Source: Candidatus Culexmicrobium cathedralense (GTDB lineage Archaea; Thermoproteota; Methanomethylicia; Culexarchaeales; Culexmicrobiaceae). From it: 64,000 bases of DNA. Position numbers and translations under genes: made by a program. The notes below the pieces were generated by a model. The model ran no database searches. It saw nothing but the letters and a program-made list of their open reading frames with translations, and had not been told where the DNA came from. Position 1 is the stretch's first letter. The number at the start of each line of letters is the position of its first letter. Positions 10,859-17,684 of the stretch are shown piece after piece. The DNA is taken from positions 480,001 to 544,000 of the forward strand of contig JANZKC010000001.1 of the NCBI GenBank assembly GCA_025061115.1, written 5' to 3'.

Positions 10859-11371
10859 CTAATAGTTTATGCCCTTAAGTGAAATAAGGTCCTTAGGATA
10901 CTTAACCTCAACTACTAAATTCACCACATCAGCCCTATCTATCAACTCCGGCGGAGCATATCTTCCAGTTAATACAACGTGCGTTTCCTCAGGAATCTTT
11001 GAAAGCAGCGAAAGCACGTCTTCAACTGAAATTAAATTAGCAGCTACAGCCAAATTCACCTCATCTAGAATGAGCAGGAAAGGCTTCTTTTCAATAGCTA
11101 TTTTCTCCGCAAAAATAAGGGCCTCCTTAGCCAAACGCCTATCCTCTTCACTTGGCTTTTTCAGATCAACCCAATCCGGCCTGCCAAACTGATATATTTC
11201 ATACTCTGGGCTCAACCTATCCTTCACAATGTACTCGCCGACATCTTTCCTCCCCTTCATGAATTGAATAACAACCACTTTAAGGCCGTGTCCAATGCAC
11301 CTCAAAGCTAAGCCAAGGGCACTAGTAGTTTTTCCAGCTCCAGTTCCAGTATAAAGGAATATGAAGCCCAT
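10859..11371 (-). CDS. cobO: Cob(I)yrinate/cobalamin adenosyltransferase (CobO/BtuR type)
   Basis: YTGTGAGKTTSALG, QFMKG, LDE, VLTGR. Confidence 0.9.
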   Translation of the reverse strand: MGFIFLYTGTGAGKTTSALGLALRCIGHGLKVVVIQFMKGRKDVGEYIVKDRLSPEYEIYQFGRPDWVDLKKPSEEDRRLAKEALIFAEKIAIEKKPFLLILDEVNLAVAANLISVEDVLSLLSKIPEETHVVLTGRYAPPELIDRADVVNLVVEVKYPKDLISLKGINY

Positions 11372-11381
11372 AATTAATCAC

Positions 11382-14300
11382 CTAAATCCTACAAACTCCC
11401 TTCGGGCATGAACCCGTATCCTCCGGGCCTAGCTCAATAACGCCTCGAGGCTTCTTCTTTGTCGGCTTCCCAATGTAAAGCACCTGCTCGCCCTTACTTC
11501 CATACCTATAAACGGTAATTCCCTTGCACTTCAACTCGTATGCTAGAATGAAAGCTCTCTTGACATCTTCAGGAGAAGCTTCATAACGCAAGTTAATGGT
11601 TTTAGACACAGCATTGTCGGTGAACTCTTGAAATGCAGCTTGCATCCTGACGTGCCAGTCAACATCAATATCCAACGCAGTTACGAAAATCCTCTTAATG
11701 TCTTCAGGCATGCCCTCCACGTACCTTATGGAGCCAACTCTGGCTATCTCCCGCATAAGTTCATCGCTATAGAGCCCTCGCTCCTTCAAGAACTCTTCAA
11801 AGACAGAGTTGACCTCAAATAAGCTCACTCCACCTAGAACTCTCCTAAAGAATGCCAAGGCAAATAGGGGCTCAATTCCACTTGAAGTTCCAGCTATTAT
11901 GCTAATGGTTCCAGTTGGAGCTATAGTAGTGGTCGTAGCATTCCTAATGCCATACTTTTTAATTTTAGCCCTAAGGTCATCCCACTTCAAAGTATACTGC
12001 TTCTCCTCATCATCAGCCTCAAAGGGGAAGCGCGGTTGATCGCCATCATATATTGAACCCTTAAATGCTGGAAAGCTGCCCCTCACCTTAGCCAAGTTTA
12101 TGGACTCAACCTTGCTGTAGTAATTTATGTACTCCATAATTCTCCTAGCTAAATTAAGCGCCTCCTCAGAGTCGTAAGGTATTTGAAGCTTAAATAGAAG
12201 CTCAGCCCAACCCATAACGCCAAGCCCAATTTTCCTAGTTAAAAGCGTCTTCTCCTCAACTTGCGGCAGCGGATAGTTATTCGCATCTATTACATTGTCC
12301 AGAAAGTGAACTGCAATTCTAACCACTTCCCTCAACTTCTTCCAATCAATTTCATATCTCCCATCCCTCCTACGCTTAACCATAAGTGAAAGATTCACCG
12401 AGCCTAGATTGCAAGATTCAAAGGGCAGTAAGGGCTGTTCTCCGCAATTGTGAACGATAAATCCATTTGCAATGAAGGAGTGGGTGAGAGGTTCTGTCAC
12501 ATCATAAACTGGCTCTTCACCAACATACTCAATCTTCTGCACCGTAACCTCGAACCTGCCACGATAGAATTTAGACTGAGATCTCCTGTGAAATTCTGAA
12601 ATCTTCCTCTCATCGCTAAATCCAATCTTTTCAATAAACCGTTCCCTACTGTCCCTTGAAATTACAAGTTCATAATAGTCTCCACCAACATATCTCCTCA
12701 CCTTCCCTTCTGAGTCGATGTATGCGGAGACTCTCTTCTTCGACCTTTTACGCTCATAGATTTTAGACTTTATTCCGAAGTTCAGCAATAATAATTGTAC
12801 ATCCTTCAGCAATCTTAGGGACGTTGAAGACAATCTTATTGATGACCCCTCTTCAGCCTTTCCTTGAACAGAGCCATCAGCAGTGAACAACCCTCTCAAA
12901 AAGCCTCTTACAGCAAATTCCGGAGCCATGAAGATACTCCATGGAACTCGCTTCTCCTCAGCCTTCCACTCGCCTACACCTAACTTCTTGAAGAACTCTA
13001 TGAATGCCTTGGCGTGATATGATAGATGATAAGTACCATTCCTACGCTTAACCGGCTTGACGCAGCCATACCACTTCGAAATTATCTCTCGAGCCCTCTT
13101 AAGCAAGTCTAATTTTTGACTTGAGAAGGTAAATCCAACTCTATCTTTCCTGAGCCACCCGCCCCCTATAAGTAGGCCAATGACGAAGCCGAGGTCTTCA
13201 GACCACTCTTTTGGCAAGTTTAGCTTCTTCCTCTTGGTCAGGTTATTTAACTTGTCAATTTCCTCCTTTATTGGTAGTTCAATTGAGTTAGAGAAGCATC
13301 CGCAACTTTGAATTAGCAGAGTGTCGTCCTCTTTCAATTCGCCTAGCTTCTTCCATCCACTTGGAGTTAAGAACATGTGGTCTATAGTTGCTTTAATCTC
13401 ATAACCTTCCCTTGTTATGAGCCTATAAACTGGCTTTATTCCGGTAAATACGTACCTAGTGGGCTTTGATTTTACGATGCCTCTGCTTTTAATAGCTCTT
13501 AAATCGACGATTAATGAGGTTGAAAGTGACTTGGGATTATTTCTAGTTAAATTCTCAATTGGTATCAAACCTTTTTCAGTGACTACTAATGTATCTCCAG
13601 TTACACATGGGTTAGTACTCTCTATTTCGCCGAGTTGAGGCGTTGGATTATGCTTGTTGATTCGGTCGATGAATACTAGGCCTGGATCTCCTGTTCTCCA
13701 AGCATTATAAACAATCATGTCGAAAAGGTATTTTGCATTTATCTTGCCTTGAGGCTCGCCTGTCCTCGGATTGATCAAGTTTATTTCCTTCTCCTCCTCA
13801 ACAGCCTTCATAAATTCATCCGTAACCGCTACCGAGATATTGAAGTTTGTCAGCACACCCTCCTTAGTCTTAGCATAAATGAAATCCATAATATCGGGGT
13901 GATCAACCCTTAAAATACCCATATTAGCACCGCGACGCTTATTATGAACTAAGATTCCATTTGCGACGAAACACCCTGATATTGTTTCTATGTCCATCGT
14001 ATATTTTCGATCTTCCTTTATTTCGACAACTCTTGTGTAGTAATATTTTGGATCACACAATTTGACTAACCTTTCATCTTCCTTAAGAAATGGAAATTCT
14101 TCTAAAAGTTTAATTAGGCGCTTACGAGTTAGATTTCTCCTATGTTTTTCATTCCTTGTAATGTAATGATAAATCGCTCTAAAGAATTTTTGATTAGCAC
14201 CACGCTTAGACCTTCCCTTGCCGCAACCTCTTCCAACAAAGCTATAATGAGACATCAGTATTCTTTCCGCATTTGGTATGACATCCACGTACTCAAACTT

Positions 14301-17300
14301 CTTTTCATGGAATCTCCTCAACAGCTTTTCATTTTTCTTCTCGGTTAGGAAGCCTATATGCTCAATGAATAACTTTATGCTTCTTTCAGGAATTATGGTC
14401 AGGTGATATATTGGTGATCTGCCGAACCTATTTTCACCCTTCTCATACTTCTTAATGGAGGAGACTATTCCTAAGCTTAAAAGCAACTGTTGAACTTCTC
14501 TGACTAATCTTTCTGATGACACTTGAAGCCTTGGATAACCATCTTCATGAACATCCCCATCACCCTCAAACAGCCCCCGCAAGAAGCCATAAGCAACTTC
14601 TTTTGATGACGTAAATATTTCTCTAGGTATGAAAGCTTCCCGAGAATTCTTTTTAATCCAATTCATGGACTTGAAAAATCTCTGCAAATCTACTGAGTAA
14701 AAAACCAAGTCAACATAACCTTCTTTTCTTCGCTTATAACCAACCTTTAAGTTGAAAACTTTCAGCATTAAGTCCTCTATTATCTTTTCAAGTTCCTTAT
14801 CATCATTTGAAACTGAGAAAATAAGTCTACCATCAGCGCTGATACAGCCATCAGACATATACAGACCAAGAATTTCAGCAAGTTCAGGAGTGATTCTTTC
14901 TGGAATTCTTATCTTATTTGCATTAAAATGCTGTTTTTCAATTCTTAGAAGAGGCGCATCTGGAAGATCAGGATGACCTCCAAGTACAACAACCAGCCAG
15001 TCACCAACCCTTATGTCTTGAGCCTCTTTCCATATTATTTCTCCTTCTTGAGAAACAACCGCAACTTTATGATTATACGTTACATCAAGTTCTAGACCAA
15101 GATCAGTTTTAATTTTCAAAACATCAGCCACACCATTATCCGCCGCCAAGAAAGCATGAATGAAAGCGTCTCCATCAAAGACAAGGTAATTAGTTGGATT
15201 TTCAGAGTGTGATGGGCAGTCAAGTAATTCAGCTAATGGCAGTATACCTTTATTCGTCCTAACCAAACTATCAACAGCTATACATCCACCCTGCTTAATG
15301 ACGTCGGTTGCAACGTCAAATATCCTCATGAAGCTTACCGGGCCGGATGCAACGCCCATAGTAGTTCTAACCACGTCGCCCTTCGGCCTGAGCCTTGAAA
15401 ATGAGAAGCCAGTGTTATGAACTATCATGAAGCCATTCTGTCCAGCTAGATATGTTTCGGTTTCATCAACCGTTAAGTCATACATAACCACCTTATCAGT
15501 ACCATGCAATCTTTCAATGCGTATAATAGGGACAGAATGTAACATTGCGTGTAACATAGTTCTTATCTTTTCAGCATCACTGAAGAATCCATTCCTCTCT
15601 AGGGCATCAGCTAGCTTAGTCATTAACATTTCAAATTTAACGGCACTGATCCCATGTCCCCACATCCATCTGTGAACCCATATCTTTGCGCCTCCGAGGA
15701 TCAATGGCTTCCTGTGCAATGAGGATACATTTATTCCCAATTTTTCTAAGAAGCCTCTAATCGTCTCAAAACTTAATTTTACACTTCTCCTATACGATGA
15801 CTTTCCAACTACTTTAAGCAATAAACTTGCTTTACGCTTTATACTCATTCTAGATGCAATCTCCCTGGCAAAATATGAAAATTCAGGTGAGCTCTCAACG
15901 CAAATTACGTAAAGTTCCTTCTTCTCTTTAGATCTCTTCGGCTTTCTAACTCTAAATCTTATCTTTAATCCCAGAGCAGTTAGCAGCAGTGCTAATTGCC
16001 TCATAACGCTATGTGAAGTACAAGTAATGCATAACCTCGCCCTATCCTTAGAAACTTCACCTTCAGCATCTATGAAACCAGCTATAAATGACAGAACAAC
16101 GCTCAAAGGCGACTTAAATATCTGCTCAGGTATCCTCCAAGCATCACCGTCAGTTGCTCTTAGATTTCTTAAAACGAAATCAATGACTCTCTTATCACAT
16201 GTTTGAAAAATCCACATGTCACATCTTTTCTCTTTGTAAATGCAGCCAACATCATCATTGAAGACTTCACTTAAAATGCTCTTGAGAAGTTCGAGAGGTT
16301 CCCTTTCACGATCGAAAGCTCTCACCCTATGCGGTTCAGCGCAACCGTCACCAATCAAGTACCCTATGGCCCACGCCAACTTCTCGGATAATTTGAAACC
16401 ATCAATTTTTTGATATTCAGTGAAAATCCAGTTGCTTGGTTTAGGTGGAAGTAGCAGTAAGTCCCCTTCCTTAAGTTCATCAGCCCTCTTTTCTACAATT
16501 TCGCCCCTCTCATTTACAACAATAAATGGATGCCATTCACTTACAACAACTTCTAAGCCATTTCCAGCTTTAATCTTAAGTAACTTATTTCGAGGAAGAA
16601 TGTACTTCCATACTCTTGTAACTTTTCTAAAGTTAACTCTATTATCGGTTTTATCGTAAGTCAAAACTCTAATGTCAAGATTTGAAACATCAATTGAAAC
16701 GGTCTCATCCGAATTTTTCAAATGTACTGGTATGAGGGGTTCAACAATGTTTTCAATTGGAGCTATTCCACAAACATTAGTGTAAATGTAGGTTCCCTTA
16801 GCTACACAACCACCTCCGCTCTTGTGAATTAAGGCGGCGTATTTTAGTGCATCGAATATGCTCTCTATAGAGTCTTCTACTGGAATTACGAAGCAGGCCG
16901 ACAATTGACCTAAGGGTGCACCTGCATTCATTAAGGTGGGAGAGTTTGGCAGGAAGTACTTGTTAACCATGATCTTGTAGAATGTATCTATGACGTCTTC
17001 GTAGAGCTCATCCCACTTCTCGTCAAGAAATCTGAGTAAGTCATTAAATGAAACCTTCATCTTACCCTCTTTGCCAAGCCTATTGTAAACTCTCTTCAGC
17101 ATTTCGAAGTCATACTCGTTTATAACAGCCCTCTTAAGCTTATAAGTAGGCTCTTCGGCTTGCCTCTTAGGCTGCCTACCAGCCTTATCGTAAACTTCAC
17201 TGTAGTAGAAAATGTCTACCAAGCCTACATGCCTAGCAACTCTCATGAACATTTGCTTTGGTGTTTCAATAACCTTGCCAGATTCGTCTTTAAGTAAATA

Positions 17301-17684
17301 TCTATTCTTCAAGACTGTTACAGCGTTTACAGACAACTTCATGTCGTCAACTACGCCAAGCATCTTCTTAATTTCCCTAATTTCACTCCTCTGCTGCCTG
17401 TAGAGAATGTAAGCTTTAGCCACTTCATAGAGACCATTTTTAACAAGTACTTTCTCCACAATGTCTTGAATCTCCTCTACGTGAGGAATCTTCTTATCCC
17501 CAAATTCAGACTCCAAAATTGCGACAACTTCATCAGTTAGCTTTGCAGCTAACTTCCTAGAGCCTGTTCCAACAGACTCCATAGCCTTCCAAATAGCTCT
17601 CTCAATTCTTTCCCTATCGAAAGCTACAACTCTTCCATCTCTCTTGATGACTTTTGATACTTTAGAATGCACATTAATCACCAC
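11382..17684 (-). CDS. nrdJ: Class II adenosylcobalamin-dependent ribonucleotide reductase precursor with 3 inteins (about 800 aa after removing them)
   Basis: N-terminal ATP cone (VIKRDG), PNSPTLMNAG, LSACFV, GGG|TG, QGG|KRRGANM, TNP|CGEQPL, SCNLGS, TIAPTG, C-terminal CPKGVC. Confidence 0.97.
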   Translation of the reverse strand: MVINVHSKVSKVIKRDGRVVAFDRERIERAIWKAMESVGTGSRKLAAKLTDEVVAILESEFGDKKIPHVEEIQDIVEKVLVKNGLYEVAKAYILYRQQRSEIREIKKMLGVVDDMKLSVNAVTVLKNRYLLKDESGKVIETPKQMFMRVARHVGLVDIFYYSEVYDKAGRQPKRQAEEPTYKLKRAVINEYDFEMLKRVYNRLGKEGKMKVSFNDLLRFLDEKWDELYEDVIDTFYKIMVNKYFLPNSPTLMNAGAPLGQLSACFVIPVEDSIESIFDALKYAALIHKSGGGCVAKGTYIYTNVCGIAPIENIVEPLIPVHLKNSDETVSIDVSNLDIRVLTYDKTDNRVNFRKVTRVWKYILPRNKLLKIKAGNGLEVVVSEWHPFIVVNERGEIVEKRADELKEGDLLLLPPKPSNWIFTEYQKIDGFKLSEKLAWAIGYLIGDGCAEPHRVRAFDREREPLELLKSILSEVFNDDVGCIYKEKRCDMWIFQTCDKRVIDFVLRNLRATDGDAWRIPEQIFKSPLSVVLSFIAGFIDAEGEVSKDRARLCITCTSHSVMRQLALLLTALGLKIRFRVRKPKRSKEKKELYVICVESSPEFSYFAREIASRMSIKRKASLLLKVVGKSSYRRSVKLSFETIRGFLEKLGINVSSLHRKPLILGGAKIWVHRWMWGHGISAVKFEMLMTKLADALERNGFFSDAEKIRTMLHAMLHSVPIIRIERLHGTDKVVMYDLTVDETETYLAGQNGFMIVHNTGFSFSRLRPKGDVVRTTMGVASGPVSFMRIFDVATDVIKQGGCIAVDSLVRTNKGILPLAELLDCPSHSENPTNYLVFDGDAFIHAFLAADNGVADVLKIKTDLGLELDVTYNHKVAVVSQEGEIIWKEAQDIRVGDWLVVVLGGHPDLPDAPLLRIEKQHFNANKIRIPERITPELAEILGLYMSDGCISADGRLIFSVSNDDKELEKIIEDLMLKVFNLKVGYKRRKEGYVDLVFYSVDLQRFFKSMNWIKKNSREAFIPREIFTSSKEVAYGFLRGLFEGDGDVHEDGYPRLQVSSERLVREVQQLLLSLGIVSSIKKYEKGENRFGRSPIYHLTIIPERSIKLFIEHIGFLTEKKNEKLLRRFHEKKFEYVDVIPNAERILMSHYSFVGRGCGKGRSKRGANQKFFRAIYHYITRNEKHRRNLTRKRLIKLLEEFPFLKEDERLVKLCDPKYYYTRVVEIKEDRKYTMDIETISGCFVANGILVHNKRRGANMGILRVDHPDIMDFIYAKTKEGVLTNFNISVAVTDEFMKAVEEEKEINLINPRTGEPQGKINAKYLFDMIVYNAWRTGDPGLVFIDRINKHNPTPQLGEIESTNPCVTGDTLVVTEKGLIPIENLTRNNPKSLSTSLIVDLRAIKSRGIVKSKPTRYVFTGIKPVYRLITREGYEIKATIDHMFLTPSGWKKLGELKEDDTLLIQSCGCFSNSIELPIKEEIDKLNNLTKRKKLNLPKEWSEDLGFVIGLLIGGGWLRKDRVGFTFSSQKLDLLKRAREIISKWYGCVKPVKRRNGTYHLSYHAKAFIEFFKKLGVGEWKAEEKRVPWSIFMAPEFAVRGFLRGLFTADGSVQGKAEEGSSIRLSSTSLRLLKDVQLLLLNFGIKSKIYERKRSKKRVSAYIDSEGKVRRYVGGDYYELVISRDSRERFIEKIGFSDERKISEFHRRSQSKFYRGRFEVTVQKIEYVGEEPVYDVTEPLTHSFIANGFIVHNCGEQPLLPFESCNLGSVNLSLMVKRRRDGRYEIDWKKLREVVRIAVHFLDNVIDANNYPLPQVEEKTLLTRKIGLGVMGWAELLFKLQIPYDSEEALNLARRIMEYINYYSKVESINLAKVRGSFPAFKGSIYDGDQPRFPFEADDEEKQYTLKWDDLRAKIKKYGIRNATTTTIAPTGTISIIAGTSSGIEPLFALAFFRRVLGGVSLFEVNSVFEEFLKERGLYSDELMREIARVGSIRYVEGMPEDIKRIFVTALDIDVDWHVRMQAAFQEFTDNAVSKTINLRYEASPEDVKRAFILAYELKCKGITVYRYGSKGEQVLYIGKPTKKKPRGVIELGPEDTGSCPKGVCRI
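12447..13607 (-). mobile_element. Intein 3 (387 aa) in nrdJ, inserted before the thiyl-radical Cys; LAGLIDADG domain
   Basis: NP|CVTGDT ... TIDH ... VYDVTEPLTHSFIANGFIVHN|CGEQ. Confidence 0.95.
13941..15284 (-). mobile_element. Intein 2 (448 aa) in nrdJ loop 2; LAGLIDADG domain; non-canonical +1 Lys
   Basis: KQGG|CIAVDS ... TYNH ... LGLYMSDG ... LRGLFEGDG ... ANGILVHN|KRRGANM. Confidence 0.93.
15414..16808 (-). mobile_element. Intein 1 (465 aa) in nrdJ; LAGLIDADG domain
   Basis: SGGG|CVAKGT ... SEWHPF ... IGYLIGDG ... IAGFIDAEG ... MYDLTV ... IVHN|TGFSFS. Confidence 0.95.

Follow-up and report, generated by a model that had tools for sequence, protein, structure and literature searches.

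The window analysed in this study is a stretch of 64,000 nucleotides from the archaeon Candidatus Culexmicrobium cathedralense (contig JANZKC010000001.1, positions 480,001 to 544,000). It contains an nrdJ gene, encoding a class II ribonucleotide reductase (RNR), whose reading frame is interrupted by three inteins. The second of these (intein 2) occupies loop 2 of the enzyme. It is a complete, endonuclease-bearing intein followed by lysine, and it belongs to a large group of inteins without a cysteine, serine or threonine at the first position after the insert (+1). Below, G000 denotes the genome of the window, G001 a genome of the same genus, and G002 a genome of a different genus within the same family. 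The features on which the analysis depends are as follows (positions in the window):

11382-17684, minus strand: nrdJ open reading frame (ORF), 2100 aa; ATP-cone, RNR all-alpha domain and RNR barrel, broken by three inteins
13941-15284, minus strand: intein 2, 448 aa; HINT splicing domain with a nested LAGLIDADG homing endonuclease, in loop 2 (the specificity loop), between QGG and KRRGANMG
15282-15284, minus strand: Cys1 (TGT), the N-terminal nucleophile, directly after Gly-Gly
15258-15260, minus strand: Arg9 of block A, a residue specific to the clade described below
15069-15080, minus strand: block B, T69-Y-N-H72 (TYNH)
14844-14882, minus strand: LAGLIDADG motif 1, LAEILGLYMSDGC, with Asp145 (D145 in 99% of 112)
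14553-14591, minus strand: LAGLIDADG motif 2, YGFLRGLFEGDGD, with Asp242 (D242 in 98% of 112)
13941-14006, minus strand: blocks F and G, KYTMDIETISGCFVANGILVHN; Asp431 is kept, the usual block F His is replaced by Gly437, and Leu445-Val446 precede His447-Asn448
13941-13946, minus strand: terminal His-Asn (His447-Asn448)
13938-13940, minus strand: the +1 residue, Lys (AAG); it is native to loop 2 of the host enzyme and is not Cys, Ser or Thr

Junctions and fold of intein 2

Read along the minus strand, the protein runs ...VATDVIKQGG/CIAVDSLVRT...GCFVANGILVHN/KRRGANMGILR across intein 2 (slashes mark the junctions). Excision in silico gives QGG-KRRGANMG, and KQGG-KRRGA is also the sequence of 21 of 21 insert-less loci of relatives, G001 included, in agreement with the original prediction that removal restores a normal intein-less loop 2. 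The element is therefore an in-frame insert at a conserved site, is missing from orthologues and leaves a continuous host sequence when removed, which are the features by which an intein is recognised. Since the ends of the insert share no residues with its flanks, the junction has no alternative position; a misplaced junction was ruled out, as the insert-less relatives read QGG-K.

None of the ten extein residues that follow intein 2 (KRRGANMGIL) is Cys, Ser or Thr, which excludes the standard splicing route for this intein. Cys1, the block B TxxH motif, the terminal His-Asn and both LAGLIDADG motifs, all reported earlier to be intact, were each located in the window sequence. The central claim of the original prediction, that an intact endonuclease-bearing intein lacks a +1 Cys, Ser or Thr, proved exact, and the relatives described below make the case stronger than was claimed.

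The AlphaFold2 model of intein 2 (pLDDT 89.4, pTM 0.90) was used for a fold search, in which the best match was the TliVMA intein (7qss; E 1.5e-27, TM 0.71/0.74), followed by PI-PfuI and PI-PkoII. The modelled fold is that of an ordinary endonuclease-bearing intein and is silent on the mechanism.

Confirmation of the +1 lysine

Because a single base separates the lysine codon from one for threonine, sequencing or assembly error (ACG read as AAG) was considered. Contigs of all four sequencing runs that cover the codon agree over it, and no Thr, Ser or Cys was seen. None of the runs registered as RNA contained the stretch. One of these runs is perhaps the source of the window DNA; the other three, obtained from separate samples, represent different strains, as mismatches to the window elsewhere (e.g. 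13856, 13914 and 13971) show. When 60 relatives of the window genome were searched with intein 2 plus 40 flanking residues on each side (a 528-aa query), full-length matches were found in G000 and G002 only. The G002 sequence is 84% identical to that of the window over the query with flanks and 81% over the intein alone, and its junction reads ...LLVHN/KRRGANMG, with the +1 Lys encoded by AAA. The agreement of the four runs, the AAA codon of G002 and the family-wide occurrence of the trait rule out an error. The suggestion that the lysine might be unique to this assembly fails for the same reason, as G002 and many homologues have Lys at +1.

In the vent and sediment samples concerned, contigs of further organisms align only with the conserved segment past the junction (13891-13931). 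They continue into an intein-less loop 2, in which QGG is followed by K, V or T; empty target sites thus coexist with the intein in these communities.

Related inteins and their +1 residues

A word-indexed protein search with residues 785-1265 of the ORF gave 1930 hits, of which the best 120 span the whole region (one of them is the window's own protein). All 120 carry an intein at the same point, with both Cys1 and the terminal His-Asn. A tabulation of the +1 residue in NrdJ homologues, which had been proposed as a check, showed K in 83 of these best 120 hits, R in 16, I in 12, M in 1 and T in 8; the eight Thr-type sequences are the most distant of the set (36-38% identity). A full HMMER search of representatives at 50% identity returned 203 proteins (E up to 1e-30). 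Among the best 150 of them, position +1 is K, R, I or V in those above approximately 40% identity, and T or S in the more distant same-site set (27-38% identity). Where no nucleophile is present, +1 simply carries the residue that the host loop provides (K, R, I, V or M).

Scanning species-representative genomes with a 10-sequence alignment revealed 80 loci. In 45 of them His-Asn is followed by K (27), R (15) or I (3) and then by RRGA; 4 others end before the junction, and the remaining 31 are distant inteins (L086-L116, 24-31% identical) that lie outside the +1 count. The clade is therefore present in 45 species-representative genomes, which include Asgard and DPANN archaea, Thermoplasmata, Methanoperedens and Chloroflexota, in addition to the window genome and G002. 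Judging from record names, its archaeal carriers include (i) Heimdall-, Hod-, Hermod- and Promethearchaeota, (ii) Micr-, Aenigmat-, Woese- and Nanoarchaeota, and (iii) Thermoplasmata, Methanoperedens, Hydrothermarchaeales and Nitrososphaeria; the bacterial carriers are some Chloroflexota, Patescibacteria, Acidobacteria and Actinomycetota.

Two shortened members, P0133 and locus L081 (384 and 379 aa), have lost some 60-80 residues of the C-terminal endonuclease region (positions ~323-411). Both keep Cys1 and His-Asn, so that in these elements the splicing part outlives the endonuclease.

Altogether, 205 loop 2 inteins were gathered (K 118, R 33, T 27, I 15, S 10, M 1 and V 1 at +1) and thinned to 115 representatives. 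In a FastTree phylogeny of 122 rows (these representatives plus 7 inteins from other sites), the 79 representatives without a +1 nucleophile form one side of a branch with a support of 99, and the Thr/Ser inteins of the same site fall outside it. The non-nucleophile inteins again form one side of a branch (SH-aLRT 99) in a quick IQ-TREE analysis of a 56-row subset. To call this group a clade presumes that the root lies among the Thr/Ser inteins and those of other sites. Path lengths within the group exceed one change per site, which indicates that it is old. These results suggest that the non-nucleophile loop 2 inteins are probably an old, widespread and mobile LAGLIDADG group of single origin.

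One sequence nested in this group (support 98), P0128, has a junction shifted by one residue (KQG/C...HN/SFRRGA), which places Ser at +1. A nucleophile seems to have been regained secondarily here.

The distribution of +1 residues bears directly on one of the routes put forward in the original prediction, in which the thioester is attacked by the side-chain (epsilon) amine of the +1 Lys, so that loop 2 is left with a branch formed by a Gly-Gly-epsilon-Lys isopeptide. Lys is indeed the commonest residue at +1, both in the best 120 of the 1930 hits and in the 205 gathered inteins, and its amine is chemically competent. The same monophyletic group, however, includes inteins with R (33 of 205), I (15), V (1) and M (1) at this position and with the same active site, so that no side-chain nucleophile, the Lys epsilon-amine included, can serve the family; moreover, the product would be a branched and nicked loop. 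The isopeptide proposal thus found no support, and we regard it as highly improbable for intein 2 itself.

Active-site residues of the group

Cys1, Thr69, His447 and Asn448 are each present in 79 of the 79 non-nucleophile representatives, which shows that selection maintains two steps, formation of the Gly~Cys1 thioester and cyclisation of Asn. Other positions distinguish these 79 inteins from the 36 of the Thr/Ser type:

Position 9 (block A): Arg in 72/79 non-nucleophile inteins; in the Thr/Ser type the commonest residues are S (16), F (6) and N (5)
Positions 445-446 (before His-Asn): Leu in 75/79 and Val in 69/79 non-nucleophile inteins; in the Thr/Ser type Val (29) at the former, Ser (25) and Thr (9) at the latter
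Position 437 (block F His): most often G (25), E (16) or A (11) in non-nucleophile inteins; His in 23/36 of the Thr/Ser type
Position 72 (block B His): His in 71/79 non-nucleophile inteins (E 7, Q 1); His in 36/36 of the Thr/Ser type
Position 431 (block F Asp): Asp in 58/79 non-nucleophile inteins (E 17, H 4); Asp in 36/36 of the Thr/Ser type

The gain of Arg9, the replacement of Ser/Thr by Val and the loss of the block F His suggest that the active site may have been retuned for a reaction that proceeds without a branched intermediate.

The same remodelling, which is unlike that of any described class (Arg9 in 72/79, Val446 in 69/79, the block F His gone and the block B His relaxed), could also point to another route altogether: a helper factor, a nucleophile located elsewhere than at +1, or conditional activity of the intein, confined to the state in which loop 2 or the cofactor is engaged. 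The exclusion of the standard route by the lack of Cys, Ser and Thr in the next ten extein residues is in line with this, but no candidate factor or residue emerged, and intein reactions are normally autonomous. We consider such a route unlikely.

Requirement for the host enzyme

In a comparison of G000 and G002, the proportions of nonsynonymous (pN) and synonymous (pS) differences are 0.109 and 0.744 for intein 2, and 0.073 and 0.778 for the 465-aa extein that follows it, with synonymous sites saturated (pS 0.74-0.78). The frame after intein 2 is under strong purifying selection.

It had been proposed that another RNR might cover the function of an unprocessed NrdJ. This is possible in the window genome itself, since G000 encodes a class III enzyme, NrdD (E 6.1e-149, a 763-aa frame), as does G002. 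The proposal did not hold for nine unrelated carriers (G061-G069): no match to NrdD was found in any of them, and every RNR-barrel match falls inside the single intein-bearing ORF (9/9). As controls, 14 genomes were searched in the same way for the RNRs, and matches appeared as expected, in 6 and 12 of them. Three of the nine genomes are complete (Heimdallarchaeum, 3.1 Mb; a Micrarchaeota chromosome, 1.6 Mb; Nanoarchaeota YN1, 0.8 Mb) and six are metagenome-assembled genomes (MAGs); the complete Heimdallarchaeum genome is the strongest case of a sole RNR. As NrdJ is the only RNR detected in all nine carriers tested, the insert must be processed productively in them.

These data also bear on the possibility that intein 2 is dead or permanent, i.e. 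that the precursor either has no activity or functions without losing the insert, NrdD supplying the deoxynucleotides in this genome. The NrdD genes of G000 and G002 are what such an explanation requires. Against it stand the selection acting on the downstream extein (pN 0.073 versus pS 0.778), the invariance of the catalytic residues in a group whose members have come to be as little as about 45% identical, the absence of another RNR from the nine other carriers, and the state of G001, which has no insert at an otherwise identical site, as is usual for a mobile, removable element. We therefore consider a dead or permanent intein very unlikely.

The NrdD match of G002 (C50, 116-4861) is split into three pieces within one open frame of 1737 aa, which suggests that the class III reductase of this genome also carries inteins.

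A second class II RNR barrel fragment was detected in G000 (locus L002, contig C11, 4858-5847). It lies at a contig end, stops before loop 2, is 57% identical to the extein of the window and probably comes from another organism. Given a bin contamination of 7.65% and its end before loop 2, the fragment is uninformative on the nrdJ gene of the window.

Proposed mechanism of processing

We propose that the group of intein 2 dropped the +1 Cys/Ser/Thr and is still processed productively, the exteins being ligated through a freed alpha-amine; on the available sequences, the chances that this is correct seem to us evenly balanced. In the proposed pathway, Cys1 would form the Gly~Cys thioester by an N-S acyl shift, and Asn448 would cyclise without a branched intermediate, releasing the alpha-amine of the +1 residue. 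This amine, positioned by the HINT active site and by the already folded RNR barrel, would then attack the thioester directly. This would leave loop 2 intact, with Gly and Lys joined by a normal peptide bond. Attack by the alpha-amine is favoured here since it restores loop 2, has been proposed for type A bacterial intein-like (BIL) domains, and would be assisted by the HINT fold and the barrel, which hold the ends close together. The route would thus be that of type A BIL domains, operating in a true intein of an essential enzyme. According to the portions of PMC4031507 that deal with them, type A BILs have Cys1 and His-Asn, no +1 nucleophile, and a C-terminal fragment whose free amino group attacks the N-terminal thioester.

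Cleavage without ligation is the principal alternative to be weighed against this proposal. In that case the thioester would be hydrolysed and Asn448 would cyclise, giving a two-chain NrdJ (~336 and ~465 extein residues) with a nicked loop 2, held together by the barrel. Such an outcome needs exactly those residues that are invariant (C1, T69, H447 and N448, 79/79) and is independent of the +1 side chain; it accounts for the sole-RNR and selection results no less well than ligation does. BIL domains without a +1 nucleophile mainly cleave, according to PMC4031507 and PMC7664689. There are nevertheless three objections to the two-chain enzyme. If the covalent link were dispensable, genes split at loop 2 might be expected (no search for them was made). 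Loop 2 of class II RNRs carries the allosteric specificity signal, which new charged ends inside the loop would be expected to disturb. Finally, the loop 2 residues are as strictly conserved in the carriers as in intein-less relatives. Cleavage into two chains is accordingly a serious possibility, though in our view a doubtful one.

Several points weigh against ligation through the alpha-amine. The joining of the exteins is itself something that we infer from sequence, and all of the conservation arguments fit a cleavage-only outcome equally well. Standard inteins mutated to Ala at +1 cleave rather than splice. With respect to natural domains, the relevant part of PMC4031507 states that cleavage products dominate in type A BILs and that one BIL spliced only once its +1 Tyr had been changed to Cys; the corresponding part of PMC7664689 likewise describes BILs as yielding mainly cleaved products. 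The block B His is missing in 8 of the 79 members and the block F Asp in 21, so that some members may be decaying or may work differently; these losses may reflect either relaxed constraint or a different catalytic set-up. The function of NrdJ is not forced in G000 and G002, as both have NrdD. Of the nine genomes in which NrdJ is the sole RNR, six are incomplete MAGs, and two of the three complete ones belong to DPANN archaea, which are perhaps fed deoxynucleotides by a host. Finally, both trees were built by fast methods, their outgroup rows are not monophyletic and no root was inferred.

Comparison with known inteins and intein-like domains

Among the closest known systems are the class 1 Thr/Ser inteins of the same site (e.g. 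P0044, P0129 and P0137), which share with intein 2 the host, the insertion point (QGG/C...HN/x-RRGA), the architecture and a similar length. Their identity to intein 2 is 27-38%, and Cys1, T69, A441, H447 and N448 are common to both. They differ in having Ser or Thr before His-Asn (34/36), a block F His (23/36) and an invariant block B His (36/36). The group of intein 2, in contrast, combines K/R/I/V/M at +1 with Arg9 and with Val ahead of His-Asn, lacks the block F His and is separate in the trees. Intein 2 thus has the Cys1, the block B Thr-x-x-His and the terminal His-Asn of a class 1 intein, but not its +1 Cys/Ser/Thr, the residue that the branched intermediate requires; this residue is replaced by K/R/I/V/M in all 79 group representatives.

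Inteins have been grouped in three classes (PMC7664689). Like intein 2, classes 2 (Ala1) and 3 (block F Cys) are natural departures from the four-step class 1 route, each with a single origin according to the section of PMC4031507 that treats them. In both, the N-terminal nucleophile is missing and the +1 nucleophile is kept; intein 2 shows the reverse. In class 2 the +1 Cys acts directly on the N-terminal junction, and in class 3 the block F Cys is the nucleophile that initiates the reaction. Its Cys1, together with the lack of a +1 nucleophile, separates it from class 2. It does not belong to class 3 either: at what we take to be the positions of the Trp/Cys/Thr signature of that class, it has Asp431 (not Cys) in block F, Val446 before His-Asn and Lys at +1.

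A PDB sequence search identified four solved archaeal inteins of the same fold (TliVMA 7qss, PhoVMA 7qst, PI-PfuI 1dq3 and PI-PkoII 2cw7; E 9.9e-13 to 9.2e-05). They reside in different hosts or at different sites and are 16-22% identical to intein 2 in structural alignments.

In its N-terminal Cys, its C-terminal His-Asn and its lack of a +1 nucleophile, intein 2 has the hallmarks of a type A BIL. BILs are small, endonuclease-free domains of variable bacterial proteins and are not known to occupy conserved sites of essential enzymes; intein 2, in contrast, has 448 aa and an intact LAGLIDADG domain, lies at a conserved enzyme site and groups with RNR inteins. Membership in the BIL lineage was rejected on architecture and context, the tree itself containing no BIL sequences. 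The Pretoxin HINT family is absent from the 8 Pfam hits of the nrdJ ORF, Intein_splicing being assigned instead. Intein 2 would therefore work like a type A BIL, yet by architecture, context and tree position it appears to be an intein of the RNR loop 2 lineage.

BIL domains are named as the only HINT members without a +1 nucleophile in PMC4031507, which cites Amitai 2003, Dassa 2004 and Aranko 2013 for work on type A. No published description of inteins without a +1 nucleophile was found in the full-text literature, whose coverage was partial and included neither supplements nor the intein registry, so that an uncommented prior listing is possible; the supplementary intein tables of PMC4760082 may list members of the group.

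Host gene and its neighbourhood

The remaining features of the locus are:

15414-16808, minus strand: intein 1 of nrdJ, 465 aa, with canonical junctions GGG/C...HN/T
12447-13607, minus strand: intein 3 of nrdJ, 387 aa, with canonical junctions NP/C...HN/C
10859-11371, minus strand: ATP:corrinoid adenosyltransferase gene (CobA/CobO/BtuR; PF02572, E 8.7e-47), directly downstream of nrdJ, 10 bases away

In Pfam, the nrdJ ORF matches PF03477 (ATP-cone), PF00317 (RNR all-alpha) and PF02867 (RNR barrel, E 6.1e-136), along with Intein_splicing and LAGLIDADG_3, each in three stretches; the first three are the domains that characterise a class II RNR. The dependence of the enzyme on B12 is suggested by the names of its homologues and by NCBIfam PRK08332. 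Inteins 1 and 3 served as internal controls for the reading of the junctions. Intein 3 is absent from G002 and the loop 2 intein from G001, both close relatives of the window genome, which indicates that the three inserts of nrdJ vary independently.

On the basis of its PF02572 assignment, the product of the downstream gene makes the adenosylcobalamin cofactor; this gene and nrdJ possibly form one operon that ties activation of the cofactor to the reductase. The adenosyltransferase gene is followed by an AMMECR1-family gene and then by a glycosyltransferase gene.

Implications

To conclude, the analysis has defined a whole group of bona fide inteins without a +1 nucleophile, which in several carriers interrupt the only source of deoxynucleotides detected. 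This points to an undescribed route of protein splicing, and either outcome, ligation or cleavage, would be new. A natural control is at hand in the Thr/Ser-type sister inteins found at this site.

If the exteins are not ligated, an essential allosteric enzyme functions with its specificity loop cut. If they are ligated, splicing proceeds without a nucleophile at the junction, and the main sequence constraint on intein-based protein ligation would be removed. Scarless natural splicing would then be possible without Cys, Ser or Thr at the junction, and Arg9, the Leu-Val-His-Asn terminus and the lack of a block F His would show how. The inteins of this group may, with what we judge to be an even chance, constitute a fourth mechanistic class: mobile elements of single origin in which the alpha-amine released by cyclisation of Asn would link Gly to K, R, I, V or M.

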